From: Candidatus Binatia bacterium
GTDB lineage: Bacteria; Desulfobacterota; Binatia; Bin18
NCBI GenBank assembly: GCA_963664395.2
Contig: OY761159.2
Location: 4,128,001-4,192,000, forward strand
DNA length: 64,000 nt
Reading direction: 5' to 3'
In this document: one piece after another, positions 7,239-62,533 of the stretch
How positions within the stretch are numbered: position 1 is the stretch's first letter
How the letters are laid out: every line of letters starts with the position of its first letter
Position numbers and translations under genes: made by a program
The notes under the pieces: generated by a model
What the model was told of the DNA's origin: nothing
Databases searched by the model: none
The model's input: the letters and a program-made list of their open reading frames with translations, nothing else

Positions 7239-7438
7239 TCGCGAATATCGAGCAATACGAAAAGGCCCAAGCGGAACTGCGTGACTTGGAGGAGCGGCTT
7301 CAGCGTTTACAGCACAACCATCCTCTTGGGGCCAAAGGGTTTACGAAAGCTGGGATTCGGAAAATGATTGCCCGTCTGCATGAAGAGCTTGCCCTGTATG
7401 AGGGCGGCCAGGAAATTGGCCACATTAAACACCCTTAG
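7235..7438 (+). CDS. small helical protein, probable partner of the upstream DUF6932-like gene
   Basis: ATGA overlap with the upstream stop. 67 aa, coiled-coil-like (MIANIEQYEKAQAELRDLEERL). Confidence 0.65.
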   Translation: MIANIEQYEKAQAELRDLEERLQRLQHNHPLGAKGFTKAGIRKMIARLHEELALYEGGQEIGHIKHP

Positions 7439-7482
7439 TCTGTAAAGCCTCTCCTATCCGCGCCGAATACACGCACCCAAAT

Positions 7483-8166: not shown

Positions 8167-8308
8167 GAACCCGTCCGCTCAATGAGGGCTTTCAGCGCGG
8201 TCATGGCTTCGGTGTGTTGAGTTTGGAGTGCGGTCATGGTTTCTTCGTTCTGGGCCTTCTGATCTTCGGACGCTACCCCTAAAGATATCCCAGAGAGGAG
8301 TATTCGTT

Positions 8309-9439: not shown

Positions 9440-9497
9440 CACTCCCTGCCAGGGCGTGCTACATACAGCCGGAGGAGAAAATGAAAGGAGAGAAGAT

Positions 9498-10439
9498 ATG
9501 GCAGAGATACGTGAAATAACCTCCGGCCTGGAATTTCCCGAAGGCCCGATTGCCATGGATGACGGCAGCGTTATCCTGACGGAGATTAAGCGCGGCACGC
9601 TTACGCGGGTCAAGCCGGATGGCACCAAAGAAGTTGTGGCCGAAACGGGTGACGGGCCGAACGGCGCGGCGATTGGACCCGACGGCAAAATCTACGTGTG
9701 TAATAACGGCGGCTTTGAGTGGATCGAAGCCGGTGGGCTGACTGTGCCGCACGGTATCCCTGAAAGCTATACCAATGGCTATATCCAGCGTGTTGATATC
9801 GACACCGGGGCGGTGGAAACGATTTATACCGAGTGCGACGGCAATAAGCTGTGCGGCCCGAACGATATTGTGTTCGATGCTCAAGGCGGCATGTGGTTCA
9901 GCGACTTCGGCAAGATCCGCGACCGCGACCGCGACGTGTGCGGCCTCTATTACGCCAAGACAGACGGCTCGCTCATCAAGGAAGTCGTCTATCCGATCCA
10001 AGGACCGAACGGCATCGGCTTGGCCCCTGGCGATGCGACCCTGTATGCGGCCCAGACCTTTGAAGCCCGGGTGTGGGGCTGGAACATTACCGGTCCGGGC
10101 GAATTGGAGCGCGTGGAAGGGACGGGTGGTCCGCTCCTGGCTGGCCCTGGTGGAGGGGTTCTGGTGGCTGGCTTACCGGGCTATCAACTCCTTGATTCAT
10201 TAGCGGTCGAGGCCAACGGCAACGTGTGTGTGGCGACCATCCTGAATGGCGGCATTAGCGTGTTTGCGCCGGACGGCTCGTCGGTCGAGCATGTGCCCGT
10301 TCCGGGAGACCCGGTGGTGACCAATATCTGTTTTGGTGGCCCGGACCTGAAAACGGCCTATATCACGCTGTCGGGTACGGGCAAGCTGGTAGCCATGGAC
10401 TGGCCGCGTCCGGGCCTGAAGTTGAATTTCACGCGCTAG
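9498..10439 (+). CDS. SMP-30/gluconolactonase/LRE family protein
   Basis: LEFPEGP, GPNG, GPNDIVFD, PNGIGL and VTNICFGG beta-propeller motifs. Confidence 0.92.
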   Translation: MAEIREITSGLEFPEGPIAMDDGSVILTEIKRGTLTRVKPDGTKEVVAETGDGPNGAAIGPDGKIYVCNNGGFEWIEAGGLTVPHGIPESYTNGYIQRVDIDTGAVETIYTECDGNKLCGPNDIVFDAQGGMWFSDFGKIRDRDRDVCGLYYAKTDGSLIKEVVYPIQGPNGIGLAPGDATLYAAQTFEARVWGWNITGPGELERVEGTGGPLLAGPGGGVLVAGLPGYQLLDSLAVEANGNVCVATILNGGISVFAPDGSSVEHVPVPGDPVVTNICFGGPDLKTAYITLSGTGKLVAMDWPRPGLKLNFTR

Positions 10440-10469
10440 GCGTCGCTTTTCGCTTGGCCTCTGGAGGAA

Positions 10470-10489
10470 GGGGGCAGCCGCCTGCCCCC
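10470..10489. terminator. GC-rich hairpin between convergent genes
   Basis: GGGGGCAG-CCGC-CTGCCCCC perfect 8-bp stem. Confidence 0.5.
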
Positions 10490-10494
10490 GCCAT

Positions 10495-10974
10495 TCAGGC
10501 CAGATGCCCGTGGCCGGGCTTGTGATGATGCGCCTCATGCGTCTGCGGACTGGTCGGTCGTACATCTCTGCCTTTCTGGTGGCTCAGGTAGATGCGGCCC
10601 AGAAATTTGACATTGGCGCAAGCGTCAACCTCACCCACATGGCACTCCGCAACGTTTGGAATAAAAAAACGATACGGCCCGCCTTTGTTCTCCGGCAGGG
10701 CCGCATCGTTGAAGCGATAGGCGATAATGCCCTCCTGCACGGCTTCGAGCGGCACACTGGCGGAGAATTTTCCGTCGGTGGACTCCAGGGTGATATAGCG
10801 GACGGTTTCTTTTGGCCCGACCTGCTCCAGTACCGTTTGGAGACGGACGGCGCTGCCTTCTCGGCCGTGAATAAGCCGGCTCACATCCTCAATCTGATCC
10901 GATAGCGCCCGCAGCTCGGAAAACCCAAAGGCGTGGGGCGACCGGACTTCGCCTTCAACGTGTAATCGTGTCAT
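10495..10974 (-). CDS. molybdopterin-dependent oxidoreductase-like domain protein (Oxidored_molyb fold), His-rich tail
   Basis: LHVEGEV...F..SEL, LES.DG.FSASVPL, LP...GGPYR, ANVK.L..I. Confidence 0.7.
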   Translation of the reverse strand: MTRLHVEGEVRSPHAFGFSELRALSDQIEDVSRLIHGREGSAVRLQTVLEQVGPKETVRYITLESTDGKFSASVPLEAVQEGIIAYRFNDAALPENKGGPYRFFIPNVAECHVGEVDACANVKFLGRIYLSHQKGRDVRPTSPQTHEAHHHKPGHGHLA

Positions 10975-11117
10975 GTCTTCTCCTTCGGTTCACAAGAGAT
11001 ATGGTCCGCATTATATCCTGGTCACAGGAGGCCGTCTTGTAGGGCCGAGCGGGCTGTTGACCCTCTACTGCCGGTGGGGCAAGCTGGCGCTCAGGCTGCG
11101 TGGGGAGGAGCACCGAG

Positions 11118-11990
11118 ATGCGGATTATTAGCTGTAACCTGAACGGTATTCGGTCTGCTGCGAGCAAAGGGTTTTTCTCGTGGCTGGAGAAACAAAACGC
11201 CGATGTGGTGTGTGTCCAAGAACTCAAGGCTCAGGAAAAAGATGTCATCCCCACCTATCAAGAAGCCGCGGGCCTGACCGGGACGTTTCACTATGCAGAA
11301 AAGCCGGGTTATTCCGGTGTGGGCATCTATGCCCGGCGGCAACCGGATCGCGTCCGGGTTGGCTGGGGCTGGCCTGACGCGGACCGCGAAGGGCGTTATC
11401 TTCGGGCGGACCTTGGCCGTCTGTCGGTGATTTCAATGTACCTGCCGTCCGGCTCGAGTTCCGAAGAGCGTCAGCGCGTTAAATATCAATTCATGGACAA
11501 GCTCTTGCCGGAGCTGAAAGCGCTGCGCGCCAGTCGCCGCCATGTCGTGCTGTGTGGGGACTGGAATATTGCCCATACCAGGAAGGACATAAAAAATTGG
11601 CGGGGCAATCAGAAGAACTCCGGCTTTCTGCCCGAAGAACGCGATTGGCTGACGCGGGTGTTCGACGAGGTCGGTCTTGTGGATGCGTTTCGACGGGTCA
11701 ACCCGGAAGCGGAACAATATACCTGGTGGTCATTTCGCGGCCAGGCCTGGGCGAAAGACGTGGGCTGGCGGATCGATTACCAAGTGGTCACACCGGGCTT
11801 AGCCAAACTGGCAACGCAGACCGCGATCTACAAGGAAGAACGCTTTTCAGATCACGCCCCGCTGAGTATTGATTACGACTATGCGTTTGACGGTCTAAAG
11901 CCACGCAAACGCGCCGCCGCAGGTTCAAAGGGCGCTCGTTCATCGAAAAATTCCGTAAAGCGGCCTGCCCGGAAGCGTAGGTCGGCTTAA
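11118..11990 (+). CDS. xth: exodeoxyribonuclease III
   Basis: ISCNLNGIR, VCVQELK, GYSGV, CGDWNIAH, YTWWS, GWRIDY, SDHAP. Confidence 0.95.
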   Translation: MRIISCNLNGIRSAASKGFFSWLEKQNADVVCVQELKAQEKDVIPTYQEAAGLTGTFHYAEKPGYSGVGIYARRQPDRVRVGWGWPDADREGRYLRADLGRLSVISMYLPSGSSSEERQRVKYQFMDKLLPELKALRASRRHVVLCGDWNIAHTRKDIKNWRGNQKNSGFLPEERDWLTRVFDEVGLVDAFRRVNPEAEQYTWWSFRGQAWAKDVGWRIDYQVVTPGLAKLATQTAIYKEERFSDHAPLSIDYDYAFDGLKPRKRAAAGSKGARSSKNSVKRPARKRRSA

Positions 11991-12054
11991 CGGAGTGTCA
12001 TCCGACGCCGACCTGAAGACCCTCACCCCAACCCTCTCCCAGAGGGGGAGGGGG
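11977..12054 (+). repeat. composite REP-like element (GTAG-type palindrome plus CCCTCACCCC..CCCTCTCCC..GGG hairpin)
   Basis: GTAGGTCGG...CGGAGTGTCATCCGAC followed by CCCTCACCCCAACCCTCTCCCAGAGGGGGAGGGGG. An inverted, similar copy lies at 52193-52312. Confidence 0.7.
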
Positions 12055-12070
12055 CAAGCAGTAGCCCCGC

Positions 12071-12565
12071 TCAGGCCACTACTTTTTTGCACTCCGCGGT
12101 GACTGTGGCACATGCCTCGGCGGTCTCTATGCAGAGCGGATGGTGGGTATGCTTGCGGCATTCCTGTTCACAGGCGTCATGAACGGCTATGCAGACGGGG
12201 ACAAAGGCTTTGAGTTGAGCGGAATCGGCAGCGGCGAGCACTCCTAGCGCTTCGCTGACCGCGTTCATCTCCTGGATGCGCGCGGCACAGGCGGACAGCG
12301 ACGTATCACCTGTCGCAAACAGGTTCAGACAGTGCTTCAGACACATCGCTCCGATGCCCACACAGGCTTGGGCCGCCAGGACGAGCTCGCGGTGTTTTGG
12401 GGCCGCGTCGTGCTGTGTATGCTCGGCCTGCTCGTGATGGGCGGCCAGGGCTGGAGAGGCCACCAGCCCGGCCAAGGCAGCGCCCGATACGCCTAGCAGG
12501 ACATCGCGCCGTTTGATCGAGGGTGGCTCAGCGGGGGCAGTACCATTCTTCTCGTGTACGTCCAT
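12071..12565 (-). CDS. Tat-exported four-helix-bundle copper storage protein (Csp1/2 type)
   Basis: Twin-arginine signal KRRDVLLG...ALAA, His-rich linker, and regularly spaced Cys (C...G.MC..HC, C...C..H, C...A.AC......C). Confidence 0.85.
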   Translation of the reverse strand: MDVHEKNGTAPAEPPSIKRRDVLLGVSGAALAGLVASPALAAHHEQAEHTQHDAAPKHRELVLAAQACVGIGAMCLKHCLNLFATGDTSLSACAARIQEMNAVSEALGVLAAADSAQLKAFVPVCIAVHDACEQECRKHTHHPLCIETAEACATVTAECKKVVA

Positions 12566-51504: not shown

Positions 51505-52176
51505 ATGGCAGAAGCTGAATTATTTGACATTATGTTCTCTACCCGGAGCATGCGCCGGCTGAAAACCGATCCAGTCTCAGATGATAATATTTATCAGATC
51601 CTCGATGCTGGTATTCGTGCCCCGAGTGGTGGCAATACCCAGCACTGGCGCTTTCTCGTTGTGAAGGATGCAGAGGTCAAACGTGAAGTCCAACGTATCT
51701 ACCAAAAAGGCTGGGAACAAGCGCGGACCATCTATGATGACCGGCCGGGGCCGAGTCATATGGAAGAAGGAAAATTCAGAAAATTATTGGACGCGGCGAC
51801 CTATTTAGCCGAAAATCTGGCTGAAGTGCCTGTCCTTATTTTCGCCTGTCTCAAAGAACGGCCTATGCCGCCGGGTGAGGCGGGTGCGCAGTTAGCAGCC
51901 AAGCTGGCGCGTCTGTCAGGGTCAAGCATCTATCCTGCGGTACAGAATATGTTGCTGGCCTGTCGTGCCTTGGGGCTTGGAGCTACGCTGACCACTGTCT
52001 GTTCGCTGCACGAGGAAGAACTGAAACCTATCCTCAATCTGCCGGATAACATCTCGACCTATGCGCTCATCCCGGTCGGCTACCCCATGGGACAATTCGG
52101 CCCGGTGCGCCGGATGGCGGTTGAAGAAATTACCTGCGTGGATCAGTGGAACACGCCGTTGAAACGACCTGCCTAG
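51505..52176 (+). CDS. nitroreductase family protein
   Basis: RSMRR, APSGGNTQHWRFLVV, SIYPAVQNMLLACRALGLG. Confidence 0.92.
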   Translation: MAEAELFDIMFSTRSMRRLKTDPVSDDNIYQILDAGIRAPSGGNTQHWRFLVVKDAEVKREVQRIYQKGWEQARTIYDDRPGPSHMEEGKFRKLLDAATYLAENLAEVPVLIFACLKERPMPPGEAGAQLAAKLARLSGSSIYPAVQNMLLACRALGLGATLTTVCSLHEEELKPILNLPDNISTYALIPVGYPMGQFGPVRRMAVEEITCVDQWNTPLKRPA

Positions 52177-52192
52177 AACGATGGCAATTATG

Positions 52193-52312
52193 CTCCCTCT
52201 CCCCTGGAGGGAGAGGGCTGGGGTGAGGGGGTTCTGCGCAACAGCGGTGTCCGTCCGTCGTACCGCACTGCCTCACGGCGCTGTCGGATGACGCTCCGCT
52301 CATCCGCCCTCC
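52193..52312 (-). repeat. composite REP-like element, inverted copy of 11977-12054
   Basis: The reverse complement reads ...GGGCGGATGAGCGGAGCGTCATCCGAC...CCCCTCACCCCAGCCCTCTCCCTCCAGGGGAGAGGGAG. Confidence 0.7.
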
Positions 52313-52402
52313 GGGGCTAACTGCGCTATTTCAGTCCACCAAGCATTAAGAGCGTTCCGCGCTATTGCGACAGGGCAGTGAAGAGGAGGAAAGGGATTCC
52401 AC

Positions 52403-54043
52403 ATGCCGACCCTGGACTTCAAAGGCAAACAGATCGTCTATGCCCATCATCTGACCGTTCCTGCGCGGACGCTGGAGGTGGATGCCGAAAAGTCGTTGCC
52501 ACCCGAAGACCAACAGCCGTCTCTTGACGACAACCTGATTATTCACGGCGACAACCTGCACGCCCTCAAGGCGCTCATGCCGCGCTATGCCGGACGGGTG
52601 AACTGCATCTACATTGATCCGCCCTACAACACTGGCAACGAAGGCTGGGCGTACAACGACAACGTGAACAGCCCGCTGATGCAGGAATGGCTGAAAGGCA
52701 AAAGCCCGGTGGACGGCGAAGACCTGGAGCGCCACGACAAGTGGCTGTGCATGATGTGGCCGCGGCTGCACCTGCTGCGTGAACTACTGGCCGAAAACGG
52801 GGCAATTTTCGTCTCCATTGACGATAACGAGCAACACCATCTGCGGATGATGATGGATGAAATTTTCGGCGCAGAGAATTTCGTCGCGACAATCATTTGG
52901 GAGAAGGTTTATTCGCCGAAGAGCAGTGCGCAATACTTCTCAGAAAATCACGATTTTATCGTCGTGTATGCCAGAAACAAGAATGAGTTCAAACTCGGAC
53001 TGCTCCCACGAACGGAAGAAGCCGATGCGCGCTATACCAACCCTGACAACGACCCGCGTGGACCATGGAAATCGGGTGGCCTCGACGCACGCAATCCATA
53101 CAGCAAAGGGATATATTCAATAAAATGTCCAGGTGGCCGTGTGGTAAAAGGACCTCCACCTGGTAACTTTTGGCGTTACTCGGAGGAAAATTTTTGGGAA
53201 TTGGACAGGGACAATCGAATTTGGTGGGGCGAGGATCAGAACCAAGTCCCGGCTATTAAGCGCTTTCTCTCCGAGGTAAAACAAGGCTTGGTGCCAGAGA
53301 CCATCTGGACATATAAGGAGGTCGGTCACACCCAAGATGCGAAGAAAACGCTCCTTCAGATTTTTCCAGAAAAATTTCCAGACTTTACGACAACCAAGCC
53401 TGTTAAATTGCTAACCCGGATCATTAGTCTCTCGACAGGCGAAGACTCCATCATCCTCGACTCTTTTGCGGGCACCGGCACGACGGCCCAGGCGGCCTTG
53501 GCGCTCAACAAAGAAGACGGCGGCAACCGTAAATTCATCCTGGTAGAGTGCGAAGATTACGCCGCCACCATCACCGCCGAGCGCGTGCGCCGCGTCATCA
53601 ACGGCATTCCGACGGCGAAGGACGAAAGCCTGAAAAACGGGCTGGGCGGCAGCTTCACCTATTGCACGCTGGGCGAAGAAATCAACCCGGAAAAAATGCT
53701 CACCGGCGACAACCTGCCGGACTACGACACCCTGGCCCGCCACCTCGTCTACACCGCCACCGGCCACGCGCCGGACAACATCCGCAAAGCACGAAGCAAG
53801 GACGGCCTTTTCCATGAAACGGACGACCGGCTGTTCTATCTGATCTACCAGCCGGACCTTGACTTCCTGCGCAGCGCCGACTCCGTCCTGAACAGCGACC
53901 GTGCCGAACGCATCGCCAAGCAGGCCAAGACCAAGCATAAAACCGCGGTCGTCTTCGCCACCCACAAGTTCATGGGCCAGAAGGAGTTGACGGGCATGGG
54001 GATTGTGTTTTGCGGGTTGCCGTATGTAAGCCTCTCAGGCTAA
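52403..54043 (+). CDS. mod: type III restriction-modification methyltransferase (Mod)
   Basis: MPTLDFKGK, IHGDNL, IYIDPPYNTG, HDKWLCMM.PRL, KPVKLL, LDSFAGTGTT. Confidence 0.93.
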   Translation: MPTLDFKGKQIVYAHHLTVPARTLEVDAEKSLPPEDQQPSLDDNLIIHGDNLHALKALMPRYAGRVNCIYIDPPYNTGNEGWAYNDNVNSPLMQEWLKGKSPVDGEDLERHDKWLCMMWPRLHLLRELLAENGAIFVSIDDNEQHHLRMMMDEIFGAENFVATIIWEKVYSPKSSAQYFSENHDFIVVYARNKNEFKLGLLPRTEEADARYTNPDNDPRGPWKSGGLDARNPYSKGIYSIKCPGGRVVKGPPPGNFWRYSEENFWELDRDNRIWWGEDQNQVPAIKRFLSEVKQGLVPETIWTYKEVGHTQDAKKTLLQIFPEKFPDFTTTKPVKLLTRIISLSTGEDSIILDSFAGTGTTAQAALALNKEDGGNRKFILVECEDYAATITAERVRRVINGIPTAKDESLKNGLGGSFTYCTLGEEINPEKMLTGDNLPDYDTLARHLVYTATGHAPDNIRKARSKDGLFHETDDRLFYLIYQPDLDFLRSADSVLNSDRAERIAKQAKTKHKTAVVFATHKFMGQKELTGMGIVFCGLPYVSLSG

Positions 54044-54093
54044 CCTGATATTTGACCATCTTCTATAGCCTGAACGGAATAATGATATAGGTT

Positions 54094-55230
54094 ATGTACG
54101 ATATTGAGAAATATAGTGAAGCAATAGGGGCGTCTTCCCCGCCTCCATCGCGCTGGGCTAACTCTTGTACGCATCGAGAGTGCTCATTGCATCAACTGTC
54201 ACCGTACATAGGGAAACTGAAGAGTGTGATTGCGCGGGACCTCATCCTTGAGTACAGCCAGCCTGGCCAGTTAGTAGTGGATATGTTTTGTGGAAGTGGC
54301 ACCGTGCCACTTGAGGCCGCTCGTCTTGGCCGACGTGTATTCGCTTCTGATATGAGCAGATACGCTGTGACGCTGACCAAAGGTAAGCTTTACGCACCAA
54401 CCAGAATCGAACCTGCACTCGCAGACCTTGATCGGCTTCTCAAACGTGTTGAATCACTGCCCATGCCAGACCTTCGAAGCGTTCCGCGATGGGTTCGAGC
54501 TTTTTTTCACCCCCGTACGTTGAAAGAGGCCCTACGTCTCAACGAATTTCTTAGACACGAAAGGCATTATTTCCTACTGGCCGCCCTGCTCGGCATCCTG
54601 CATCATCAAAGGCCTGGATTCCTATCCTTTCCAAGCAGTCACCTTGTGCCCTATCTTCGGTCAAACAAATTCCCCAGAGAAGTCTATCCCGACCTTTACG
54701 AATATCGTCCAGTTGCCCCGCGTTTGAAAGCAAAGGTCAAACGTGCTTTGAAGCGCCCATCCGCAAATTCTTTATTCAAATTAGTCGAGGGTATTCGCCG
54801 GTCCTCTGTAGAACATCTTAACCTCCCGGATGCCATTGATTGTGTCATCACCAGTCCGCCCTACATGAACGCGCTTGACTATGGGCGCGACAACCGTCTA
54901 CGGCTCTGGTTTTTGGGTGAATCGCATATGAAGTCGCTGGACCGTGCTCTTAGCGGTCTCAACAGCTTTACAAATGCGATAGATGCACTTGCCAGACAAT
55001 TACAGCAAAAAATGCGCCGGGGTGGTTATTGTGTCTTCGTCATTGGTGAGCAGTTGATTCGGAAGAAAGACCGATTTCCTTCTGAAGAGTTGATGAGGAT
55101 TTTCGCAACACATGCCCCGACATTTCAACTGTGTCAGGTCATGAGTGACGTTATTCCCGATGTACGCCGCTCACGGAGGCGACTCGCCGGAGTTAAGCGA
55201 GAGCATATCCTGGTATTTAGAAAGCACTAA
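54094..55230 (+). CDS. DNA amino-methyltransferase, motif I then SPPY (probable N4-cytosine)
   Basis: LHQLSPYIGK, VVDMFCGSGT..LEA...GR, VITSPPY, GGYCVFVIG, EHILVF. Confidence 0.85.
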   Translation: MYDIEKYSEAIGASSPPPSRWANSCTHRECSLHQLSPYIGKLKSVIARDLILEYSQPGQLVVDMFCGSGTVPLEAARLGRRVFASDMSRYAVTLTKGKLYAPTRIEPALADLDRLLKRVESLPMPDLRSVPRWVRAFFHPRTLKEALRLNEFLRHERHYFLLAALLGILHHQRPGFLSFPSSHLVPYLRSNKFPREVYPDLYEYRPVAPRLKAKVKRALKRPSANSLFKLVEGIRRSSVEHLNLPDAIDCVITSPPYMNALDYGRDNRLRLWFLGESHMKSLDRALSGLNSFTNAIDALARQLQQKMRRGGYCVFVIGEQLIRKKDRFPSEELMRIFATHAPTFQLCQVMSDVIPDVRRSRRRLAGVKREHILVFRKH

Positions 55231-55232
55231 AA

Positions 55233-57701
55233 ATGCGAAAAAACCTTCCGCCTGTAGAACTGTTCCTTGGAAGAACAATAGATAGATTTCCAAACCATGT
55301 GATTCAAGAACATGTCGGTTCAGGCTCTAATGGACATCTATTTCGGGCATTCGATCCATCAACCGAAAGTAAACTCGCGTTTAAAGTCGTTCCAGTCGAG
55401 AATCTGTTAGTCAACGATCTGTTAGATGACGAAGACAAGCGACAAACCTATTTAGATGAGGCAAAGAAAGCAAACCTTCTACAACATGCATCGGTTATTA
55501 AGTGCCATAATGTTGTGTCTTATCGCGATCCCGATAATTCAATAGGGTGCATTATTTTTGTGTATGACTATGTGGAGGGCAAGAATCTCCAGGATTACAT
55601 ACGGCAGCACAGCGCAGAGGTAAACGTATCGTTTGCGGAGACCTTTCTGCGGACAATGCTTGAATTATTATATGAGCTCAAACAGCGCGGATACCCGCAT
55701 GGTGACTTGCACGCTGGAAATGTGCTCGTTGCGAAGTCGGAATTCGATATTTATGGAAGAACGATCTTTCGTGTAACAGATTTTGGCGTCCGCGAATTGA
55801 CCGAACATAGCGCTGATGTAAGTGACTATCTTTCTGTCGCACAAACACTCAGACAGCTACTAGGCTGCGTAGAGTATCGGGACTGTGAAGGGCGAGACCG
55901 ATATGTCTACAATATCCTGAAGCAGGATTTCTTGGCCCGACATTTAATTGAAACTGATACTAGTGCAGATCCATTGGCCTGCAATCCTCAGAAACTGATG
56001 GCTAAACTGGATTCTTTAGATAGTCAATATGTTGAAAAGAAATCTTCCGTCTCTGCACTTTTGACGCCTTTCGATTACCCTAACTGTGAACAAATTGGAA
56101 ACTCTCATCTATTGCTTAAGAATCTCTACTCCGATCGTCTACTTGGACTGTCGGAGATTCAGGCAAGAGTTAATTTAATGCTAACCGGGCCTCGCGGATG
56201 TGGCAAAACTACCGTTTTCCGTGCCCTGAGCCTGGAATATTTAATTTCTAATAACGATGACGCACCAAGCCACATTAACTATATTGGCATCTATTATAGA
56301 TGTGACGATCTGTATTTCTCTTTTCCAAGATATAAGATTCCTGAACGCCTTGAAGCACTCGACGTCCCCATGCATTTCCTGACGGTCACACTACTGGCAA
56401 CTGCTTTGGAACAGATAGGGGCATGGGCAAAAAGGCATTTCCTAGATGAGTTTCAAAAAAAAGAGAATTCGCTTGTTGCAGAACTTTGGGATTTGTTTGG
56501 ATGGCCACGTCCAGACAATCCAAGTGCCGGACAGTTGGCTACTCTGGTTAACCGGTTAAAAGGTAGGGAGAGGAAGCGTGCAGCCGAGAAACAACGTTTC
56601 GTTCATGTACACACAGAACCTATCCAAGACTATTTTGGTCCAGAAATGCTACTCAAAGCCTGTCTCCTTATTCGGAACAAATTTTCATTCCTGTATGAAC
56701 GGCCTTTTTATTTTTTTATTGATGACTACTCTGATCCAAAAATTACTAAAGAATTACAATCAAATCTCAATCGATTGCTCATGTATCGCAGTCCCGATAT
56801 CTTTTTCAAAATCTCGACAGAGAGTCCAATCTCTTTTGCTCGGGATGATGTCGATGGAAAACAATTTATCGAAACTCGCGAATATGATCTGTTAAATATC
56901 GGATTAAGGTACATCATGCATGCCTCAAATCAAACGCTTGAATTTCTTGAGGATCTTTTCCGGCGTCGATTTGGGGAGGTTGAAGGATACCCCGTTCAGA
57001 CTTTAAGAGAGCTTTTAGGCTCTACACCGCGTAATGAAAACGCCACGGCCTGGGCCTTTCGAGAGAAGAAGGGGCGGGAAAACTATGCGGGTATTGAGAC
57101 TGTTGCTGCCATGTGTAGTGGTGATATCCACTATATTATTCGTCTTGTTGCCAGGATGGTGGAAGATCGTGGAGGCCGAGATTCTCTAAAGATATCCCAG
57201 ACAGCACCTCGGATACTGCCAAGCCAACAACACAATTCTATCCGTGCCGCGGCAGGAGCTTTTATGGATTCTATACGCACGCTACCCGGAAAAGGTCGGC
57301 AACTTACGGAGGTTGTGACAGCATTCGGCAACGTGGCTCATTCTTACCTTCTGTATGAAACATCGACCAATGAGGGACGTAAACTCCCTCATCAAGCATC
57401 AAGGATAGAGCCATATGAATCGATAGATATATCTGACGAGGCCCAAGAAATTCTTAACGAGCTATTGCGTTACTCAGTGCTCATTGAAGACCCTCGTGGA
57501 AAGAGTAGGCGGGGAAAGGTTGTACCTAGGTTCTACCTTCGACGTTACTTGATCCCTCATTTCCGTTTGACGTTCAGTAGGCGAGATTCTCTTCAATTGG
57601 AAAATAACCAGATCGAAACACTCCTGCGTGACCCTCAAAAGTTTGAGACTACGATGAGTCGGGGTGATCCAAATCAAGAGAAACTTTTTCCTAATGAATG
57701 A
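55233..57701 (+). CDS. Ser/Thr protein kinase fused to a P-loop ATPase (ORC/CDC6-like)
   Basis: Kinase: VGSGSNG, LAFK, alphaC Glu (YLDEA), HGDLHAGN, TDFG. ATPase: LTGPRGCGKTT (Walker A), FFIDDY (Walker B), FKISTE. Confidence 0.85.
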   Translation: MRKNLPPVELFLGRTIDRFPNHVIQEHVGSGSNGHLFRAFDPSTESKLAFKVVPVENLLVNDLLDDEDKRQTYLDEAKKANLLQHASVIKCHNVVSYRDPDNSIGCIIFVYDYVEGKNLQDYIRQHSAEVNVSFAETFLRTMLELLYELKQRGYPHGDLHAGNVLVAKSEFDIYGRTIFRVTDFGVRELTEHSADVSDYLSVAQTLRQLLGCVEYRDCEGRDRYVYNILKQDFLARHLIETDTSADPLACNPQKLMAKLDSLDSQYVEKKSSVSALLTPFDYPNCEQIGNSHLLLKNLYSDRLLGLSEIQARVNLMLTGPRGCGKTTVFRALSLEYLISNNDDAPSHINYIGIYYRCDDLYFSFPRYKIPERLEALDVPMHFLTVTLLATALEQIGAWAKRHFLDEFQKKENSLVAELWDLFGWPRPDNPSAGQLATLVNRLKGRERKRAAEKQRFVHVHTEPIQDYFGPEMLLKACLLIRNKFSFLYERPFYFFIDDYSDPKITKELQSNLNRLLMYRSPDIFFKISTESPISFARDDVDGKQFIETREYDLLNIGLRYIMHASNQTLEFLEDLFRRRFGEVEGYPVQTLRELLGSTPRNENATAWAFREKKGRENYAGIETVAAMCSGDIHYIIRLVARMVEDRGGRDSLKISQTAPRILPSQQHNSIRAAAGAFMDSIRTLPGKGRQLTEVVTAFGNVAHSYLLYETSTNEGRKLPHQASRIEPYESIDISDEAQEILNELLRYSVLIEDPRGKSRRGKVVPRFYLRRYLIPHFRLTFSRRDSLQLENNQIETLLRDPQKFETTMSRGDPNQEKLFPNE

Positions 57702-58758
57702 CGACACATTTAACAATAACTTGCTAAGACCAGATGAAAAATTAAGCAGGGCCGAGTGGCCAGATCTGCAAGAGATCGAGTTCCCTTCAGTGGGAACTGG
57801 CGACTGTTTGCTGGTATGTGCTGGATTTGAAGACCGTGCTATCGAAACTCTACGTCGAATCTGTGAATCGGGAAGAACAGGCTTCCCACTTGGCATAGTA
57901 AACTATCTTCCAATCTACCCAGAAAATAAAATCGAAGAGCTACGTACAATTGGTCGAAGTGCTGATCTCCAGGTAAATGAGTTTTCTTACAACCGCGAAA
58001 ATCCCACAGGTATTGGAGAAGAACTAAAACGATTCACGCAGGACTTTGAACATCTTTTTATTGATATTTCTGGCATGTCACGTCTCCTCATCGTGCAGAC
58101 ATTGGTAGCGTTAATCGGCGGACAAAGGCAGCCGTTAAGCCTAATCTATGGCGAAGCAAAAGAATACCCACCTTCTAAAGATCAATTTGAGCAAGATGAC
58201 ACGAATGATGACGCCAAGTCGGTGCCGAGTTACCTGTCATCTGGAATTTTTGAAATAGCAGCGACCCCTGAATTGGGTTCTGTATCCATGTTGGGCGAGG
58301 CGATCCGGCTGGTAGCATTTCCATCATTTGACCCCGCTCAGCTCACTAATTTGCTTCAAGAGCTGCAACCTGCTTACACGGAACTTATTCATGGTGTACC
58401 TCCAGTTAAAGAGAATGAATGGCGAAAGGATGCAATCCGTAAACTTAACCGTCCGACATTAGATGAGCTTCAAGAGAAAAAAGATCATGAGGCGTCTACG
58501 CTTGACTACAGAGAGACATTACATGCGCTACTCCAGATATATGCAAAACGCAGCATGTTTGATCGCATCGTAGTTGCTCCTACCGGCAGCAAGATGCAGG
58601 CTGTAGCCGTGGGCCTGTTTCGGTCGGTCCTTCATGATGTCCAAATTGTCTATCCTACGCCACAGATTTTCACAGCACCCCAAGAACATACTATAGGTCT
58701 TCGGCAACTGTATAAGGTTGATATTCCAATAGAGGCAATAATAATGCGGCCGGATTGA
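57694..58758 (+). CDS. hypothetical protein with two Rossmann-like (CARF-like) repeats
   Basis: Repeat 1: LLVCAGFEDRA...FIDISGMSR...LIY. Repeat 2: LVAFPSFD...IVVAPTGSK...IVYP. The start overlaps the stop of the kinase-ATPase gene. The fold call is by eye. Confidence 0.65.
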   Translation: MNDDTFNNNLLRPDEKLSRAEWPDLQEIEFPSVGTGDCLLVCAGFEDRAIETLRRICESGRTGFPLGIVNYLPIYPENKIEELRTIGRSADLQVNEFSYNRENPTGIGEELKRFTQDFEHLFIDISGMSRLLIVQTLVALIGGQRQPLSLIYGEAKEYPPSKDQFEQDDTNDDAKSVPSYLSSGIFEIAATPELGSVSMLGEAIRLVAFPSFDPAQLTNLLQELQPAYTELIHGVPPVKENEWRKDAIRKLNRPTLDELQEKKDHEASTLDYRETLHALLQIYAKRSMFDRIVVAPTGSKMQAVAVGLFRSVLHDVQIVYPTPQIFTAPQEHTIGLRQLYKVDIPIEAIIMRPD

Positions 58759-58914
58759 GGACTTTCGGTGAGAGGCTATTGGCCTTCAAAGCCTCAAGTT
58801 TGGGATTGTTTCGAGATTACAATGATAAATCGGATGATTCAGATAATAGCTATCCAAGAAGCTGCCTCATCTGGAGAACATATCAAGGATTCCTTACGCC
58901 GCAGATAGGGTGAC

Positions 58915-61482
58915 GTGCAACTCAAAACCTACCAGCAAAACGCCCTCGACCAACTCGACCGCTGGCTTGAAGCACTCAAGGAAGCCCGGCTGAAATGTGA
59001 GAAAGCCACGAAGGCGCTCGAAGAGAGCGGCGTTGATGTTCCCGAGGAACTAAAAAATTATCCCCTGGCTGCCTGGAAAAACCTCAAAGAGCAAAACGTC
59101 CTTCCTGCCGTCCAGAATCAAGACGGAAAATCCGAAGTCCCCGACTACATCCCCCGAACCGCGACCTCCGGTGAGCCTGCCCCGCATGTCTGCCTGAAAA
59201 TCCCGACCGGAGGCGGCAAGACGCTGCTGGGCGTTGCCGCGCTCGAACGTATCAAGCAGGACACGGGCTTTGTGCTGTGGATCGTGCCGACGCGGGCGAT
59301 CTATGATCAGACGCTCAAGGCGTTCAGAACCCGCGAACACCCGTACCGGCAAATGCTCGAAAGAATTTCCGGCGGCAAGGTCAAACTATTGCAGAAGGAC
59401 GACCGCTTTACCCGACAAGATGTTGAAAGCCGGCTGTGCATCATGATGCTGATGTTGCCGTCCGCTAACCGGCAAAAGGGCAAGGACTTTCTCAAGATAT
59501 TCCGGGACAGTGGCGGGTATACCTCCTTCTTCCCGGAACAGGATGACATGACCGCCAACCGTGAGCTTTCAGAACAACTCCCCGACCTGGAGAAGAACCG
59601 CAGCGGCGATTGGGTCAAGCAAAGCCTGATTAACGTCCTGAAGCTCATCCGTCCGACCGTGATTCTGGACGAGGCGCACAAAGCCTATGGGCCGAATGAC
59701 AAAAACAATCGGGAGTTCGTCAAGTCCGTCAACCGCCTTAATCCCCGCTTCGTGCTCGAACTGTCCGCTACGCCGAAAATTGGTATCAGCAACATCCTGG
59801 TCAACATCTCGGGAACTGAGCTTCAGGCCGAGGAGATGATAAAGCTGCCCATAGAGGTCCACAGCTTCACCAATTCCGACTGGAAGCATGCGCTCGCCGA
59901 AACGCAGAAAAGAGTAGAGCAACTGGAAGAGGAAGCGCGGCAACTCCAATCGAGAGAAAACCGCTATGTCCGTCCCATCGCTCTGGTACGGGTGCAACGA
60001 ACGGGCAAGGAGCAAAGGGGCCAGGGAAACATTCATTCCGAGGACGTGCGCGAATACCTGATACGGAATCTTGCCGTACCGGAGGCGTGGATACGGGTGC
60101 AGTCGTCCGAAACCAAGGAACTTGGGCACGAAGATTTATTGAGCGAACACAGCCTCGTCCGCTGGATTCTGACAAAAGACGCGCTTAAAGAGGGCTGGGA
60201 TTGCTCGTTTGCATATGTGCTGGCCCTGCTGGATAACACCACGGCAACGACCGCCATGACGCAAATGGTGGGGCGGATCATGCGCCAGCCCTACGCCCGA
60301 AGAATTGAGACAAGTAAGGCCCTGAACCAGTGTTATATCTACTGTTACAACAAGGACGTGGGCAAGGCGGTTGAGGGGGTGAAAGCCGGGCTGGAAAACG
60401 AGGGGCTGACGGGCTTGGGCGATGCGGTTCGCGGCTACAGCACAGGAGACGCCCCGAAGCCGATAACCGTCCGGCGTCGCGGCACCTATAGCACACTCAA
60501 AATTTTCCTTCCTCGGGTTCTGCACAGAAAGGGGAAAGGCTGGCGTCCGATTGATTACGACCGCGACATCTTGAGCGCTGTGAGCTGGGGCGCGATTGAA
60601 GTGGGCGGGGCGGTGGATCTGGACGACGAAGACACCATGCGGGAGATCATCGCCACGGTTGACGTTCAGGGTGGGGGCAGCGTCTCTGACGAGGCTTTTG
60701 AGACCGGTGAACGATTGAGCCTTGACTATTTTGTCCGGCGACTCACGGACATTGTGCCTAATCCGTGGCAGGCGGCACGCATAGCAGAGAGCTTTCTGCA
60801 CAAGCACGAGAGCAAGGGACACAACGGGTCAAAACTGCTGAGCAACCGGGTGTATCTCTCGGAAGTATTGAGACGCCGGGTGAAAGAGGACATCGACGCA
60901 AAAGCCGAAGCGGTTTTCCACAGTAAGGTAAAGAGAGATGAGATACGGTTTCAGCTTGAGACTGGTGAACGGCTGAACTATGAGTTGGGCCGGTCGTTTG
61001 AAGTGTTTGCATCCAAGGAGGAGAGAATCCTTCAGGGTGAGCACGCCAGCCAAATACAACGCAGCCTGTTCGAGCCCCTTTTTGAAAGCGGATTCAACGG
61101 TCTGGAAAAGGACTTTGCGCTGTATCTGGAAAAGAGCAACGCGATATATTGGTGGCACAGAGTAGCCGCACGGCAGGACTACTATCTACAAGGCTGGCGA
61201 CGCCAGCGGGTATACCCCGACTTTGTGGCCTGCCGCAAAGACGATGGAAAGCTGCTGATCCTGGAAACAAAAGGTATTCACCTGAAAGGAAGCGACGACA
61301 CAGGCTACAAGAAAAAGCTGCTTGAGACCCTTGAAGAGGCATACTCAACCGCCTCTGAGAGAGGACAAATGAGAATCGGCAAGCCGTCGGCTACCTTCAG
61401 GATGATGTTTGAGGAAAGGTGGAAGGGACAGGTCAGTGAACTGCTGAACGAGACATATCGGAAAGGCCAGCGATGCGTGTAG
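58915..61482 (+). CDS. res: type III restriction endonuclease subunit (Res)
   Basis: LKTYQ, KIPTGGGKT, ILDEAH, LELSATP, LKEGWD, QMVGRIMR, C-terminal YPDF...LETKG nuclease. GTG start. Confidence 0.93.
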   Translation: MQLKTYQQNALDQLDRWLEALKEARLKCEKATKALEESGVDVPEELKNYPLAAWKNLKEQNVLPAVQNQDGKSEVPDYIPRTATSGEPAPHVCLKIPTGGGKTLLGVAALERIKQDTGFVLWIVPTRAIYDQTLKAFRTREHPYRQMLERISGGKVKLLQKDDRFTRQDVESRLCIMMLMLPSANRQKGKDFLKIFRDSGGYTSFFPEQDDMTANRELSEQLPDLEKNRSGDWVKQSLINVLKLIRPTVILDEAHKAYGPNDKNNREFVKSVNRLNPRFVLELSATPKIGISNILVNISGTELQAEEMIKLPIEVHSFTNSDWKHALAETQKRVEQLEEEARQLQSRENRYVRPIALVRVQRTGKEQRGQGNIHSEDVREYLIRNLAVPEAWIRVQSSETKELGHEDLLSEHSLVRWILTKDALKEGWDCSFAYVLALLDNTTATTAMTQMVGRIMRQPYARRIETSKALNQCYIYCYNKDVGKAVEGVKAGLENEGLTGLGDAVRGYSTGDAPKPITVRRRGTYSTLKIFLPRVLHRKGKGWRPIDYDRDILSAVSWGAIEVGGAVDLDDEDTMREIIATVDVQGGGSVSDEAFETGERLSLDYFVRRLTDIVPNPWQAARIAESFLHKHESKGHNGSKLLSNRVYLSEVLRRRVKEDIDAKAEAVFHSKVKRDEIRFQLETGERLNYELGRSFEVFASKEERILQGEHASQIQRSLFEPLFESGFNGLEKDFALYLEKSNAIYWWHRVAARQDYYLQGWRRQRVYPDFVACRKDDGKLLILETKGIHLKGSDDTGYKKKLLETLEEAYSTASERGQMRIGKPSATFRMMFEERWKGQVSELLNETYRKGQRCV

Positions 61483-61644
61483 CAATGGCCGGGCGCGTTG
61501 CGGCCATGTCGTGCAGAATGGTTACAGCCCGGTCAATACCCTCTTCCAGGGCGGTGTTGACGCTGGGTTCGGTCTGGCGGGCTTGGTGGTAGGGCATACC
61601 TCTTTATTTATCGGAAAAAAGTGGAGAGGGACCGGGAGATATTG

Positions 61645-62013
61645 CTACTCAAAAAGCTCCCCATAGACGTCGGGATGAAAGCCGACGACAAGTACTTTCC
61701 CTGCGCGTATGGCAGGGGCGCGTAGATTGCCTGAAGGGCCAATGACGGCCGAGAGCAAGGCGTCGGGTGGTTGCTGATCTTTTTTAAGAGAAAACCGAAG
61801 AATCTTTTTGCCCTTAACGGCAATGACTTGTGTGGGCGTTTGAAGCAGTTCAAGCGTCCGGGCACGGTCAAATTGTTCTTTGCGTGCATTCACAACGGTG
61901 GCGGCTGTTATATCTTTCTGCACAAGGAACTCTTGCGCTCTCTTACAGGTCACTCAACCAGGGCGATGATACTGCCAGTCCAGATGTACTTTGGGCACCT
62001 TTCCTTTTGGCAT
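61645..62013 (-). CDS. ArsC/Spx-like thioredoxin-fold selenoprotein (UxxC), UGA at 61954-61956
   Basis: Two track ORFs join in frame: MPK...DWQYHRPG-TGA-VTCKRAQEFL...GPSGNLRAPAIR.GK.LVVGF. Confidence 0.85.
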
Positions 62014-62035
62014 CTTTCTCTCCTCTTTTCTGCTT

Positions 62036-62533
62036 TTATCGGGGCGTTTTTTTCTGACGGGATTTTGTAATGATCCACTCATACCCGTCAATAAGGGCGA
62101 GCCAGGCTGATTCGAGCAAGTCGCGTGATTGGCGCATGGTGCTCCACTGCTGTACGCCATCGCTAAACTTCATGATGGATACAACCTCCGCAGCCGTCCC
62201 GGCACCGCCACGGTGGGTATACAATTCAACGAGCTCCACACCCTCAAGAAAGGGGAAGTGCTTAGTCAGGACTTGGCGGAAGGCTTGATCCAACGCATGG
62301 ACGCCTCCAACACCTTGCGCCGCGCCAAAATCCTGTTGTGTGTTCACTTCAACCAGGACAACCGCATCGATGGCGCTTTGTCCGTTCCACACCTCGTCAA
62401 TGACACGCCAGCGGATAATACGAAACGGAGAGAGATAGTCAGGGTCTTGATGCCACCGCTTGACTTCTTGCGAGGCTTGCGGGGCAGTGGTCTCAGGGAA
62501 AAATTCTTCGCTTTGTTCCGGTTGCTGTGCCAT
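62036..62533 (-). CDS. stand-alone LeuA/CimA-type C-terminal regulatory domain protein
   Basis: AAQGVGGVHALDQAFR..L...FP.L..VEL..., WSTM..S.DLLESAW.AL.DG.EW. Confidence 0.75.
   Translation of the reverse strand: MAQQPEQSEEFFPETTAPQASQEVKRWHQDPDYLSPFRIIRWRVIDEVWNGQSAIDAVVLVEVNTQQDFGAAQGVGGVHALDQAFRQVLTKHFPFLEGVELVELYTHRGGAGTAAEVVSIMKFSDGVQQWSTMRQSRDLLESAWLALIDGYEWIITKSRQKKTPR

Follow-up and report, generated by a model that had tools for sequence, protein, structure and literature searches.

A trimmed protein kinase fused to an ORC/Cdc6-like ATPase in a mobile methyltransferase-kinase-CARF cassette, a candidate defence signalling module

What is a eukaryote-like protein kinase, joined in one chain to a P-loop ATPase, doing between the two subunits of a restriction-modification (R-M) system? 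The question is raised by a + strand reading frame that occupies exactly positions 55233 to 57701 of the window (the whole 64,000-nucleotide stretch of Candidatus Binatia DNA analysed here) and encodes, from an ATG start, a protein of 822 aa. We propose, with a probability of roughly 0.55, that this protein is the central enzyme of a mobile three-gene cassette acting as an anti-mobile-element (anti-phage) signalling module. The protein is divided as follows.

55233..56048, + strand: kinase domain (residues 1-272), a non-RD, eukaryote-like Ser/Thr-kinase fold with the activation segment deleted
56148..57032, + strand: ORC/Cdc6-like P-loop ATPase core (residues ~306-600; Pfam PF24389, PADLOC PDLC01925)
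57033..57698, + strand: C-terminal helical bundle and small basic alpha/beta domain (residues ~601-822), the alpha/beta part very conserved

Judged from its sequence, the product is a trimmed but apparently active protein kinase and an ORC/Cdc6-like ATPase in a single chain. The preliminary description had proposed this fusion, and Pfam profiles for both halves match above their cut-offs: Pkinase (PF00069) with E 9.8e-15 (55.1 bits, cut-off 31.7) at residues 25-197, on profile positions 4-155 of 263, and ORC-CDC6-like (PF24389) with E 2.5e-51 (175.5 bits, cut-off 27) at residues 306-597. The core kinase motifs and the Walker A and B motifs that it listed can be read in the translation, and the catalytic residues are conserved. 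The G-loop (G29-S-G-S-N-G34) is followed by a VAIK-type motif (A49-F-K51), the αC glutamate E76 (within YLDEAKK), the catalytic loop H156-G-D158-L-H160-A-G-N163 and the DFG motif D183-F-G185. The catalytic loop is of the non-RD type, with Gly in place of the RD Arg and His in place of the Lys of Hanks kinases. In an alignment of 49 sequences (21-89% identity), G31, K51, E76, D158, N163 and D183 of the kinase and D497 and D498 of the ATPase are invariant, and K325 is near-invariant. Relatives of the protein form 190 clusters at 50% identity (E < 1e-30), from bacteria and archaea. The literature searchable here, whose coverage stops short of subscription journals, contains no experimental study of any cassette member.

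The kinase is an atypical, trimmed member of the Hanks-type fold, which throughout the family has no APE-ended activation segment (subdomain VIII). In 27/27 aligned family members DFG lies only ~14 residues away from D198, the invariant Asp that comes next, all 60 of the PDB-kinase profile alignments listed stop at query residues 182-206, the Pfam Pkinase match ends at profile position ~133-162 in 24 distant relatives, and the pLDDT of the predicted model falls below 50 at residues 191-195. The missing segment, which had been noticed from the letters, is thus a property of the family. A bilobal kinase fold is nevertheless recovered by the structural comparison that the preliminary description had suggested: searches with the whole predicted model (Foldseek and a wider structure search) returned kinases only, the kinase domain filling both lists. 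Control by a means other than activation-loop phosphorylation, as that description had supposed, is a fair inference, because the kinase is non-RD, lacks a canonical activation segment across the family and is fused to an intact P-loop ATPase.

In the ATPase half, Walker A (G319-P-R-G-C-G-K325-T-T) carries an Arg within the P-loop and Walker B reads F494-F-I-D497-D498-Y499; G322, G324 and R579 are further invariant residues of the 49-sequence alignment, and R321 and C323 are near-invariant. The PF24389 profile also matches 28/28 distant representatives. A long helical insert is predicted between the strand at residues 351-356 and the Walker B strand at 492-497. Sequence and profile searches of the PDB with this half gave P-loop matches only (best profile E 5.3e-04). 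The long helical C-terminus described earlier is present in the model, where residues ~601-822 mostly have AF2 pLDDT above 90, but it is incomplete as a description, since a small alpha/beta domain is found there as well. No 30-residue stretch in the ATPase half is more conserved than residues ~740-770 (majority fraction 0.81), where many Arg and Gly are invariant, and the C-terminal region may bind nucleic acid or a partner. No repeat sensor (TPR, WD40 or LRR) was matched in Pfam at E<=0.01, in agreement with the earlier remark that TPR repeats are not visible.

The kinase-ATPase gene is tightly packed between two partners.

54094..55230, + strand: cassette gene 1, SPPY amino-methyltransferase, 378 aa (Pfam N6_N4_Mtase, PADLOC MTase_II)
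57694..58758, + strand: cassette gene 3, tandem-CARF protein, 354 aa, a single chain of two Rossmann-like lobes lacking an effector domain

Only 2 nt separate the methyltransferase stop from the kinase-ATPase start, and the kinase-ATPase and CARF genes share 8 nt, from the ATG of the latter to the stop of the former (ATGAATGA), giving a cassette of three genes in 4.7 kb. The methyltransferase is directly upstream in 33/35 related loci and a CARF-like gene directly downstream in 33/35, and all four missing neighbours (two on the methyltransferase side, two on the CARF side) are accounted for by contig ends. The kinase-ATPase is therefore never alone, both partners being kept wherever the flank of the locus exists, and no fourth gene recurs across the 35 loci. 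The cassette genes are intact, tightly coupled and co-inherited, and ~4/35 copies look broken. In the RNA libraries of two studies, contigs cover each of the three genes in part and run across the kinase-ATPase/CARF junction, which is a weak hint of expression given that such libraries can hold DNA; gaps in this cover are no sign of silence.

The methyltransferase (Pfam N6_N4_Mtase E 5.2e-12; PADLOC MTase_II PDLC03325 E 3.8e-19) has an N-terminal SAM motif (D63-x-F65-x-G67) and an invariant C-terminal S254-P-P-Y257, and its PDB profile matches are N4-cytosine and N6-adenine DNA methyltransferases (best E 3.2e-07). It is the most conserved protein of the cassette, its identity exceeding that of the kinase-ATPase in 28/33 loci, equalling it in three and falling below it in two truncated ones. 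The segment between motifs I and IV is conserved as strongly as the motifs themselves. In R-M and BREX methylases, by contrast, specificity changes fast, and the pattern seen here could point to a non-DNA or fixed target.

The downstream protein has the Rossmann-like CARF fold, and matches PADLOC PDLC01917 (within 'CARF6--CARF_CARF_CARF', PDLC01911-22) with E 2.5e-15. CARF proteins have conserved ligand-loop motifs after strand 1 and strand 4, with a form [DN]x[ST]xxx[RK]. Three motifs lie in the predicted ligand loops of the present protein and were compared among 29 sequences. G44-F-E-x-R48 does not vary; D124-x-S-x-x-x-R130 (D-I-S-G-M-S-R) has invariant D124 and S129, with at least 90% conservation at S126, M128 and R130; and P296-T-G-S-K-M-Q302 has invariant P296, G298, K300 and Q302, with at least 90% conservation at T297, S299 and M301. 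A fused relative (P0254, 1222 aa) combines kinase, PF24389 and tandem CARF in one chain (hhalign probability 98.9%, E 3.2e-17). The tandem CARF protein is likely the regulator of the kinase-ATPase next door, to which it is fused in some relatives. A predicted complex of the ATPase half with the CARF protein scored 0.00 in both of two runs made without controls, a value with no bearing either way on binding.

None of the three cassette genes is a source of a CARF ligand. Dependence of the cassette on Type III CRISPR was considered and rejected: Csm1-type Cas10 is over the cut-off in 3/35 cassette genomes and Cmr2-type in 4/36, and the source genome (95.9% complete) has neither, counts that fall short of proof since the MAGs are incomplete. 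The source genome has a single SMODS match, 2.5 Mb from the cassette.

By record title, the 35 loci belong to a dozen or so phylum-level groups, archaea included. The same trio is found on a plasmid (pBq66S1MBc) of the cultured soil bacterium Bradyrhizobium quebecense 66S1MB and on one IMG/VR contig, that is, in 1/72,556 plasmid records and one full-length viral contig; a search of 50,697 phage records gave no match, nor did the complete genomes of E. coli when queried with a copy from an Enterobacteriaceae MAG. Homologues occur in 2/56 genomes of the same order, the source genome included, and the other copy is 47% identical; copies that are 72-76% identical occur in other phyla. The GC content of the cassette is 0.44-0.475, versus 0.51-0.56 for the flanking R-M genes. 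Runs labelled 'sponge metagenome' contributed small shares only (0.10-0.14), and we draw no habitat claim from them. The cassette moves between phyla, landing in or beside restriction-type systems. In the window, these flanking genes are the following.

52403..54043, + strand: Type III R-M methyltransferase Mod, 546 aa (PADLOC MTase_III E 5.3e-186; Pfam N6_N4_Mtase E 8e-42)
58915..61482, + strand: Type III R-M restriction subunit Res, 855 aa (PADLOC REase_III E 1.3e-214; Pfam ResIII E 2.8e-14)

Together they supply both subunits of a Type III R-M system. They are a flanking system outside the conserved cassette, and Mod accompanies the cassette in only 5/35 related loci. The cassette sits between Mod and Res in the window and in L004, L006, L009 and L010, and downstream of both in L011. 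Elsewhere it lies between HmaA and HmaB (L001, L005, L018), in L001 between HmaA and HmaB/HmaC, and Hma genes were recognized by clustering or Pfam in L005, L018 and L026. It follows a Type I R-M system in L008 and a Type IIG enzyme in L002, and precedes a ZorD/DpdE-like helicase in L022. One copy (L030) is ~10 kb from a Cmr2 gene and adjoins a Cas1-like gene. The surroundings in the window are otherwise housekeeping genes. No integrase, tRNA or replication genes lie around the cassette, and the window as a whole contains no tRNA; Rfam gave nothing at E<=0.1 in 51900-62200, direct repeats flanking the cassette are short two-copy matches only, and promoter-like and terminator-like signals are as numerous as in shuffled sequence. 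Here the cassette has entered a Type III operon, parting Mod from Res, and it probably forms a second layer alongside the R-M system.

Is this a known system? The architecture is already catalogued in silico, in the relevant passage of Makarova 2014 (PMC4012209) and in the PADLOC 'CARF6' models. The kinase-ATPase matches PDLC01925 ('CARF6--CARF_STK_AAA') with E 1.6e-24 at residues 308-733; with its downstream neighbour it provides the STK_AAA and CARF matches in adjacent genes that define the PADLOC 'CARF6' pair, which is already listed as a PADLOC-DB v2 candidate, by HMM names only. These model names probably go back to the 2020 CARF census (Makarova et al., NAR 48:8828). The 2014 passage describes a small family of proteins that fuse a Zn ribbon, a Ser-Thr-Tyr kinase, an AAA+ ATPase with an Arg inside the P-loop, a CARF domain and a wHTH, and predicts kinase signalling under CARF control (PMC4012209). 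The present proteins share with them the kinase, the distinctive AAA+ ATPase (here GPRGCGKT, with the near-invariant R321) and CARF. They differ in that CARF is a separate two-lobe gene and in that a methyltransferase gene always comes first, the passage on the 2014 family mentioning no methylase; neither the Zn ribbon nor the wHTH was seen in the general searches made here.

Methylation-linked defence systems offer functional parallels. BREX type 2 (Pgl), as outlined in part of PMC12839542, comprises the kinase PglW, the methylase PglX, the ORC-Cdc6-type ATPase PglY/BrxC and PglZ, and thus likewise brings a Ser/Thr kinase and an ORC/Cdc6-clade ATPase together with a methylase, in a system that is linked to methylation and poor in nucleases. 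In the cassette, by contrast, kinase and ATPase are one chain, and a CARF protein is found instead of PglZ. The ATPase half shows no detectable similarity to a BrxC-like/DUF499-type HmaC (hhalign probability 0.2%), and membership of BREX type 2/Pgl was rejected for want of PglZ and of BrxC/PglY-type ATPase similarity. MADS, in the relevant passage of PMC13662399, is a methylation-associated eight-gene operon (mad1-mad8) that includes a kinase and two ATPase-nuclease modules (MAD3/4 and MAD7/8). The kinase domain matches PADLOC mad6 (E 1.5e-17), and the mad8 and mad2 matches are at the level of the P-loop or SAM motif; membership was rejected, the mad6 match being confined to the kinase domain of a three-gene cassette without the eight-gene operon. 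Other PADLOC matches are similarly limited to the kinase domain: PD-T4-6 single-gene defence kinases (best E 5.4e-16), which lack an ATPase, methylase or CARF partner, and C3a189 (E 2.8e-05), described in part of Shah et al. 2018 (PMC6546367) as a Type III CRISPR accessory cluster. Can1 (PDB 6sce), a cA4-activated Type III CRISPR nuclease, also has two CARF domains in one chain, but the cassette protein is only 11% identical to it, has no nuclease domains and has no obligatory Type III CRISPR link.

The likeliest reading of the cassette is a methylation-linked defence module that signals through a CARF-gated kinase. In the mechanism that we envisage, the methyltransferase would put down a self mark, and the ATPase, together with the conserved basic domain at its C-terminus, would sense DNA, as has been suggested for ORC-CDC6-like parts of other putative immune systems. 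Binding of a nucleotide-type ligand to the tandem CARF subunit would gate the ATPase, whose ATP-dependent assembly would join the loop-less, non-RD kinase domains. The assembled kinases may then phosphorylate host or phage proteins, halting growth or phage replication, so that the response would be phosphorylation rather than DNA cutting. Against this reading count the absence of a nuclease or other obvious killing domain, the absence of a CARF-ligand source from the cassette, the unusual conservation pattern of the methyltransferase, and the lack of phage matches together with the single plasmid copy. A bolder version, which we regard as doubtful, makes the cassette a self-contained immune system without a demonstrated precedent, comparable to a pared-down Pgl/BREX type 2 devoid of nucleases, in which the tandem-CARF sensor gates the kinase independently of Type III CRISPR or CBASS cyclases, the ligand comes from infection or from the system's own enzymes, the methylase provides self-tolerance, and nesting in R-M/Hma operons reflects functional coupling, with restriction products or failed restriction as the trigger.

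The same nesting could be read differently. Insertion inside Mod/Res and HmaA/HmaB operons, and contact with Type I and Type IIG systems, would suit an accessory regulator whose kinase modifies Res/Mod (or Hma, Type I) subunits by phosphorylation and so switches restriction on or off (e.g. alleviation, licensing), with CARF supplying the signal. We think this unlikely: the systems that it is found with are unrelated in kind, the remaining loci have no restriction-type neighbour in the flanks scanned (82/243 flanking ORFs by PADLOC), and a mere regulator would not need the methyltransferase that the cassette carries. The Type III nesting may moreover be a single ancestral event spread by transfer, because Mod is 64-86% and Res 73-79% identical across those loci. 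Archaeal replication initiators are ORC/Cdc6-type ATPases, which raises the further suggestion of a module that serves the maintenance, replication or epigenetic control of mobile elements, governing the replication or addiction of its carrier. Occurrence on a plasmid and on a contig where a capsid is weakly matched, adjacency of thyX in L017, L031, L032 and the B. quebecense plasmid, and the potential of a methylase and a toxic kinase to form an addiction pair all agree with it, but the rarity of plasmid and viral copies and the housekeeping context of the window copy do not, and the CARF sensor and defence-island neighbours suit immunity better; we give it little credence.

The preliminary description had pictured ATPase-driven oligomerization as in NLR/Avs-like sensors. 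In its full form, this reading would make the protein a self-sufficient STAND sensor, whose ATPase oligomerizes on sensing a phage protein and turns on the kinase without partners. The 'hhhhDD' form of Walker B and the loop-less kinase are compatible with such a sensor, and language-model neighbours include proteins named Sll1717-family/KAP/nSTAND1 P-loop NTPases (scores 0.89-0.92, leads only) and clusters in which 11-13% of members carry nSTAND1 or KAP_NTPase (scores 0.91-0.92, again weak leads). The comparison holds as an analogy at best: Pfam files the ATPase as ORC-CDC6-like and at E<=0.01 matches neither NACHT or NB-ARC nor a repeat sensor, no Avs model is among the PADLOC families listed (the best 25 of 28), and the gene keeps both partners wherever the flank exists, the CARF one being fused to it in some relatives. 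A stand-alone sensor of this kind thus seems improbable.

We return to the CARF-gated signalling module as the preferred reading. To our knowledge, no CARF-controlled kinase has been characterised so far. The kinase domain, a naturally occurring case of a eukaryote-like kinase losing the activation segment while retaining every catalytic residue, is for that reason a clean model for induced-proximity activation on an AAA+ scaffold. The cassette is tractable, being small and present in one copy on the plasmid of a cultured bacterium. Should it prove to be an immune system, bacteria and archaea would have in it a widespread module that answers infection by phosphorylation and not by nucleic-acid cutting, and that joins methylation-based self marking to CARF nucleotide sensing, two subjects until now studied separately.

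The kinase-ATPase gene is the middle member of a cassette of three genes (the trio), which lies between the methyltransferase (Mod) and restriction (Res) subunits of a Type III restriction-modification (R-M) system:

52403-54043, Type III Mod (PADLOC, E 5.3e-186), on one side of the cassette
54094-55230, methyltransferase, 378 aa, ending 2 nt before the kinase-ATPase gene
55233..57701, forward strand, kinase-ATPase, 822 aa
57694 (ATG), tandem-CARF gene, 354 aa, overlapping the kinase-ATPase stop by 8 nt
58915-61482, Type III Res (PADLOC, E 1.3e-214), on the other side of the cassette

The kinase-ATPase reading frame has the boundaries given in the preliminary description, and its translation contains every motif listed there, from G29-S-G-S-N-G34, A49-F-K51, E76, H156-G-D-L-H-A-G-N163 and D183-F-G185 of the kinase to Walker A (G319-P-R-G-C-G-K-T-T327) and Walker B (F494-F-I-D-D-Y499) of the ATPase. 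The proposed fusion is borne out by Pfam, which assigns the N-terminus to protein kinases (PF00069, E 9.8e-15; score 55.1 bits, cut-off 31.7) and residues 306-597 to an 'ORC-CDC6-like' family (PF24389, E 2.5e-51). A word-indexed search (8000 candidates scored) returned 932 proteins at E ≤ 1e-3; among the 120 matches listed, identity was 58-100%, most were ~800-850 aa (four of 687-713 aa), and 116 carried both Pfam families. When 1.84 billion cluster representatives were searched exhaustively, 3509 matched at E ≤ 1e-3, 437 of them at ≤ 1e-10 and 190 at ≤ 1e-30. The gene is real and well conserved, and its motif pattern is not a product of chance.

In alignment A1, comprising 49 full-length homologues (21-89% identity to the query), G31, K51, E76, H156, D158, N163, D183 and D198 of the kinase domain are invariant, while H160, F184 and G185 are kept in at least 90%, a pattern typical of an active enzyme and not of a pseudokinase. 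The AF2 model (mean pLDDT 90.4, pTM 0.69) has a kinase fold, with PknB kinase domains as its best Foldseek matches (2fum_D, E 1.5e-09), and the domain therefore spans ~270 residues, with a helical C-lobe, not the ~190 residues and short C-lobe first described. The activation segment is absent, as originally noted: in each of the 27 members aligned, DFG leads into a variable loop of ~12 residues (frequently holding Ser or Thr; pLDDT <50 at residues 191-195), after which comes the invariant D198, probably the subdomain IX Asp. With a family profile as query, 1360 PDB kinase sequences matched at E ≤ 1e-5, but 60 of the 60 alignments listed end at query positions 182-206; the Pfam kinase match likewise stops at profile positions ~133-162 of 263 in the 24 distant relatives having such a match (28 examined). 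The catalytic loop, HGDLHxGN, is non-RD, as reported before, with His replacing the Lys of Hanks kinases.

In the ATPase half, G322, G324, D497, D498, Q509 and R579 are invariant in A1, and G319, R321, C323 and K325 nearly so. In the model, strand 315-318 precedes the P-loop, and a second strand (351-356) is followed by a long helical insert (358-483) and the Walker B strand (492-497). Beyond this lie strands 523-528 and 551-555, then a stretch of helices and, at 722-808, a small alpha/beta domain. Conservation of this half peaks at ~740-770 (…DPRGKSRRGKVVPRFYLRRY…), a segment that may bind nucleic acid or a partner. Whole-model fold searches returned match lists filled by kinases, and PDB sequence searches with the ATPase half found P-loop similarity only. 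Its language-model neighbours fall in clusters auto-named 'P-loop ATPase, Sll1717 family' or KAP (scores 0.89-0.92), a few carrying nSTAND1, which are leads only; similarity to the BrxC-like HmaC of one related locus (L001) was not detectable. In Makarova et al. (2014, PMC4012209), an Arg within the P-loop marks a 'small family' of Zn-ribbon/kinase/AAA+/CARF/wHTH proteins, a trait shared by the ATPase described here.

The tandem-CARF protein has no match in Pfam or NCBIfam, and matches the PADLOC 'CARF6--CARF_CARF_CARF' models (E 2.5e-15). Two Rossmann-like lobes make up its AF2 model (pLDDT 90.7, pTM 0.92); tandem universal stress proteins head the Foldseek ranking (4r2k, E 1.9e-06), yet Can1, lower by E (1.5e-05), has the best query TM-score (0.47 versus ~0.23). 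CARF ligands sit in the strand1-helix1 and strand4-helix4 loops, and it is these loops, in both lobes, that hold the residues invariant among 29 homologues (G44-F-E-x-R48, D124-I-S-G-M-S-R130, F209-P210 and P296-T-G-S-K-M-Q302). The protein is therefore a single-chain CARF pseudo-dimer lacking an effector domain. One relative (P0254, 1222 aa) joins kinase, PF24389 and tandem CARF in a single chain (residues 872-1215 match the tandem CARF; hhalign probability 98.9%, E 3.2e-17), a fusion which argues that the kinase-ATPase and CARF proteins act together physically.

The source of a CARF ligand was sought among cyclases. The three cassette genes include none, and the window's genome (95.9% complete) has neither a Csm1-type Cas10 nor a Cmr2-type protein over the cut-off; its sole SMODS (CD-NTase-like) match above the cut-off (G000:C1:1614679-1615098, L036, E 4.8e-11) is 2.5 Mb from the window. 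Among genomes that carry the cassette, Csm1-type Cas10 exceeds the cut-off in 3 of 35 and the Cmr2 type in 4 of 36. In one genome (G030) a Cmr2 gene (G030:C1:2246021-2247952) lies ~10 kb from the disrupted cassette of L030, which has a Cas1-like gene beside it, and the kinase-ATPase matches PADLOC C3a189 (E 2.8e-05), a 'kinase' cluster that a 2018 study lists among Type III accessory genes (PMC6546367). Given this rarity and these two links, some relatives may respond to CRISPR signals, while the family as a whole seems independent of them.

The methyltransferase (Pfam N6_N4_Mtase, E 5.2e-12; PADLOC Type II MTase model, E 3.8e-19) has invariant D63-x-F65-x-G67 and S254-P-P-Y257 motifs, and its PDB profile matches are N4-cytosine and N6-adenine DNA methylases. 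It is the most conserved member of the trio: of 33 loci, its identity exceeds that of the kinase-ATPase in 28, matches it in 3 and falls below it in 2 truncated ones; in plasmid and viral-contig copies it is 47-51% identical, against ~25-28% for the kinase-ATPase. Its middle region is as strongly conserved as the catalytic motifs, which suggests a fixed target, and both observations count against a simple self-marking role.

Scanning a single genome for each species yielded 35 loci, which their record titles place in about a dozen phylum-level groups, two Bathyarchaeia among them. By tblastn with the window's proteins, the methyltransferase lies directly upstream in 33/35 (L025 and L029 begin within the kinase gene) and the CARF gene directly downstream in 33/35 (L013 and L020 stop with the kinase-ATPase gene or immediately beyond it); when the 930 ORFs of 110 aa or more in these loci were clustered, no fourth gene turned up in more than five of them. 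The trio is also present on an IMG/VR contig (L038) and on the Bradyrhizobium quebecense plasmid pBq66S1MBc (L037, NZ_CP088025.1). In the latter, the annotation gives kinase (246 aa) and ATPase (652 aa) a gene each (L037:6956-9651), with a 4-nt overlap, through a natural split or else a frameshift, and an Mrr-type restriction endonuclease lies upstream. Three of the 35 loci have a thyX gene, for a flavin-dependent thymidylate synthase, beside the cassette and in its orientation (L017:12596-13528, Pfam Thy1 E 4.5e-54; L031:5695-6678; L032:11415-12392, in fragments), and so does the plasmid, where thyX follows the trio (L037:10831-11754). About four copies look damaged: L006 (frameshift-like break), L030 (cassette at 6823-12450; extra segment inside the kinase-ATPase gene), L032 (fragments) and L016:8001-10499. 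The kinase-ATPase frame of L016, otherwise full-length and 55% identical, has an in-frame TAA at codon 579 that could reflect a pseudogene or sequencing error.

Within its order the cassette is rare, with homologues in 2 of 56 genomes (its own counted; the other copy 47% identical), versus copies 72-76% identical in other phyla, which amounts to horizontal spread. The cassette GC (0.475 and 0.440 in its two 2-kb bins) is below that of Mod (0.563), Res (0.511-0.548) and the remainder of the window (0.516-0.619), so that the cassette appears to have been inserted into an older operon. The five genes are surrounded by housekeeping genes (nitroreductase, hydrolase, LeuA-like, IMPDH), and no tRNA or integrase was found around the block in the window. 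Mod and Res accompany the cassette in 5/35 loci (L004, L006, L009, L010, L011); between Mod and cassette lie an IS1595-family transposase in L009 (5438-6220, E 7.7e-32) and a 698-aa TPR protein in L010 (4659-6752). Elsewhere it sits between an HmaA-like helicase and the HmaB/DUF1156 methylase, with HmaC beyond (L001, PADLOC-tested; L005, L018 and L026, by clustering or Pfam), after a complete Type I system (L008) or Type IIG enzyme (L002), ahead of a ZorD/DpdE-like helicase (L022), next to further candidate defence genes (several loci), or without a recognised defence neighbour (many). NsnC-, NsnB-, HEC-05/HEC-01A- and PDC-S01-type proteins flank it at L004:3610-4548, L005:14437-15903, L018:14556-17917 and L007:2962-4200, and these four loci are defence islands.

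In two studies, RNA-seq-library contigs partly cover each of the three cassette genes as well as Res (95-99+% likeness), one of 647 nt covering 57585-58225 across the kinase-ATPase/CARF junction; since such libraries may contain DNA and transcript ends are not visible in the contigs, they hint only weakly at expression. The best promoter-like site of the region (58718-58745, 10/12 matches, inside the CARF gene end), in a total equal to shuffled expectation, lies 170 nt before Res, which may thus have its own promoter. The gap that precedes Mod holds a GC-rich element of ~40 nt able to form a hairpin (52191-52231; no Rfam match), which reaches a summed RNA-library depth of ~450-630 in three of four runs, with many differing loose ends on both sides, and looks like a short interspersed repeat common to many contigs or organisms.

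We consider the cassette, with a probability of roughly 0.55, a methylation-linked, CARF-gated kinase signalling module acting in defence; each individual step of its mechanism is held with less confidence. DNA methylation would mark self, DNA would be sensed by the ATPase together with its C-terminal domain, and the CARF protein would bind a ligand; ATP-driven assembly could then activate the kinases by proximity, which would phosphorylate host or phage targets. The kinase/AAA+/CARF architecture was already described in 2014 (PMC4012209), and models exist for the kinase-ATPase and CARF proteins (PADLOC) and the ATPase family (Pfam); no experimental paper on the cassette was found in the literature searched, most subscription journals lying outside it. 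The kind of system is thus already catalogued, and the window's copy stands out for its nesting within a Type III R-M operon.
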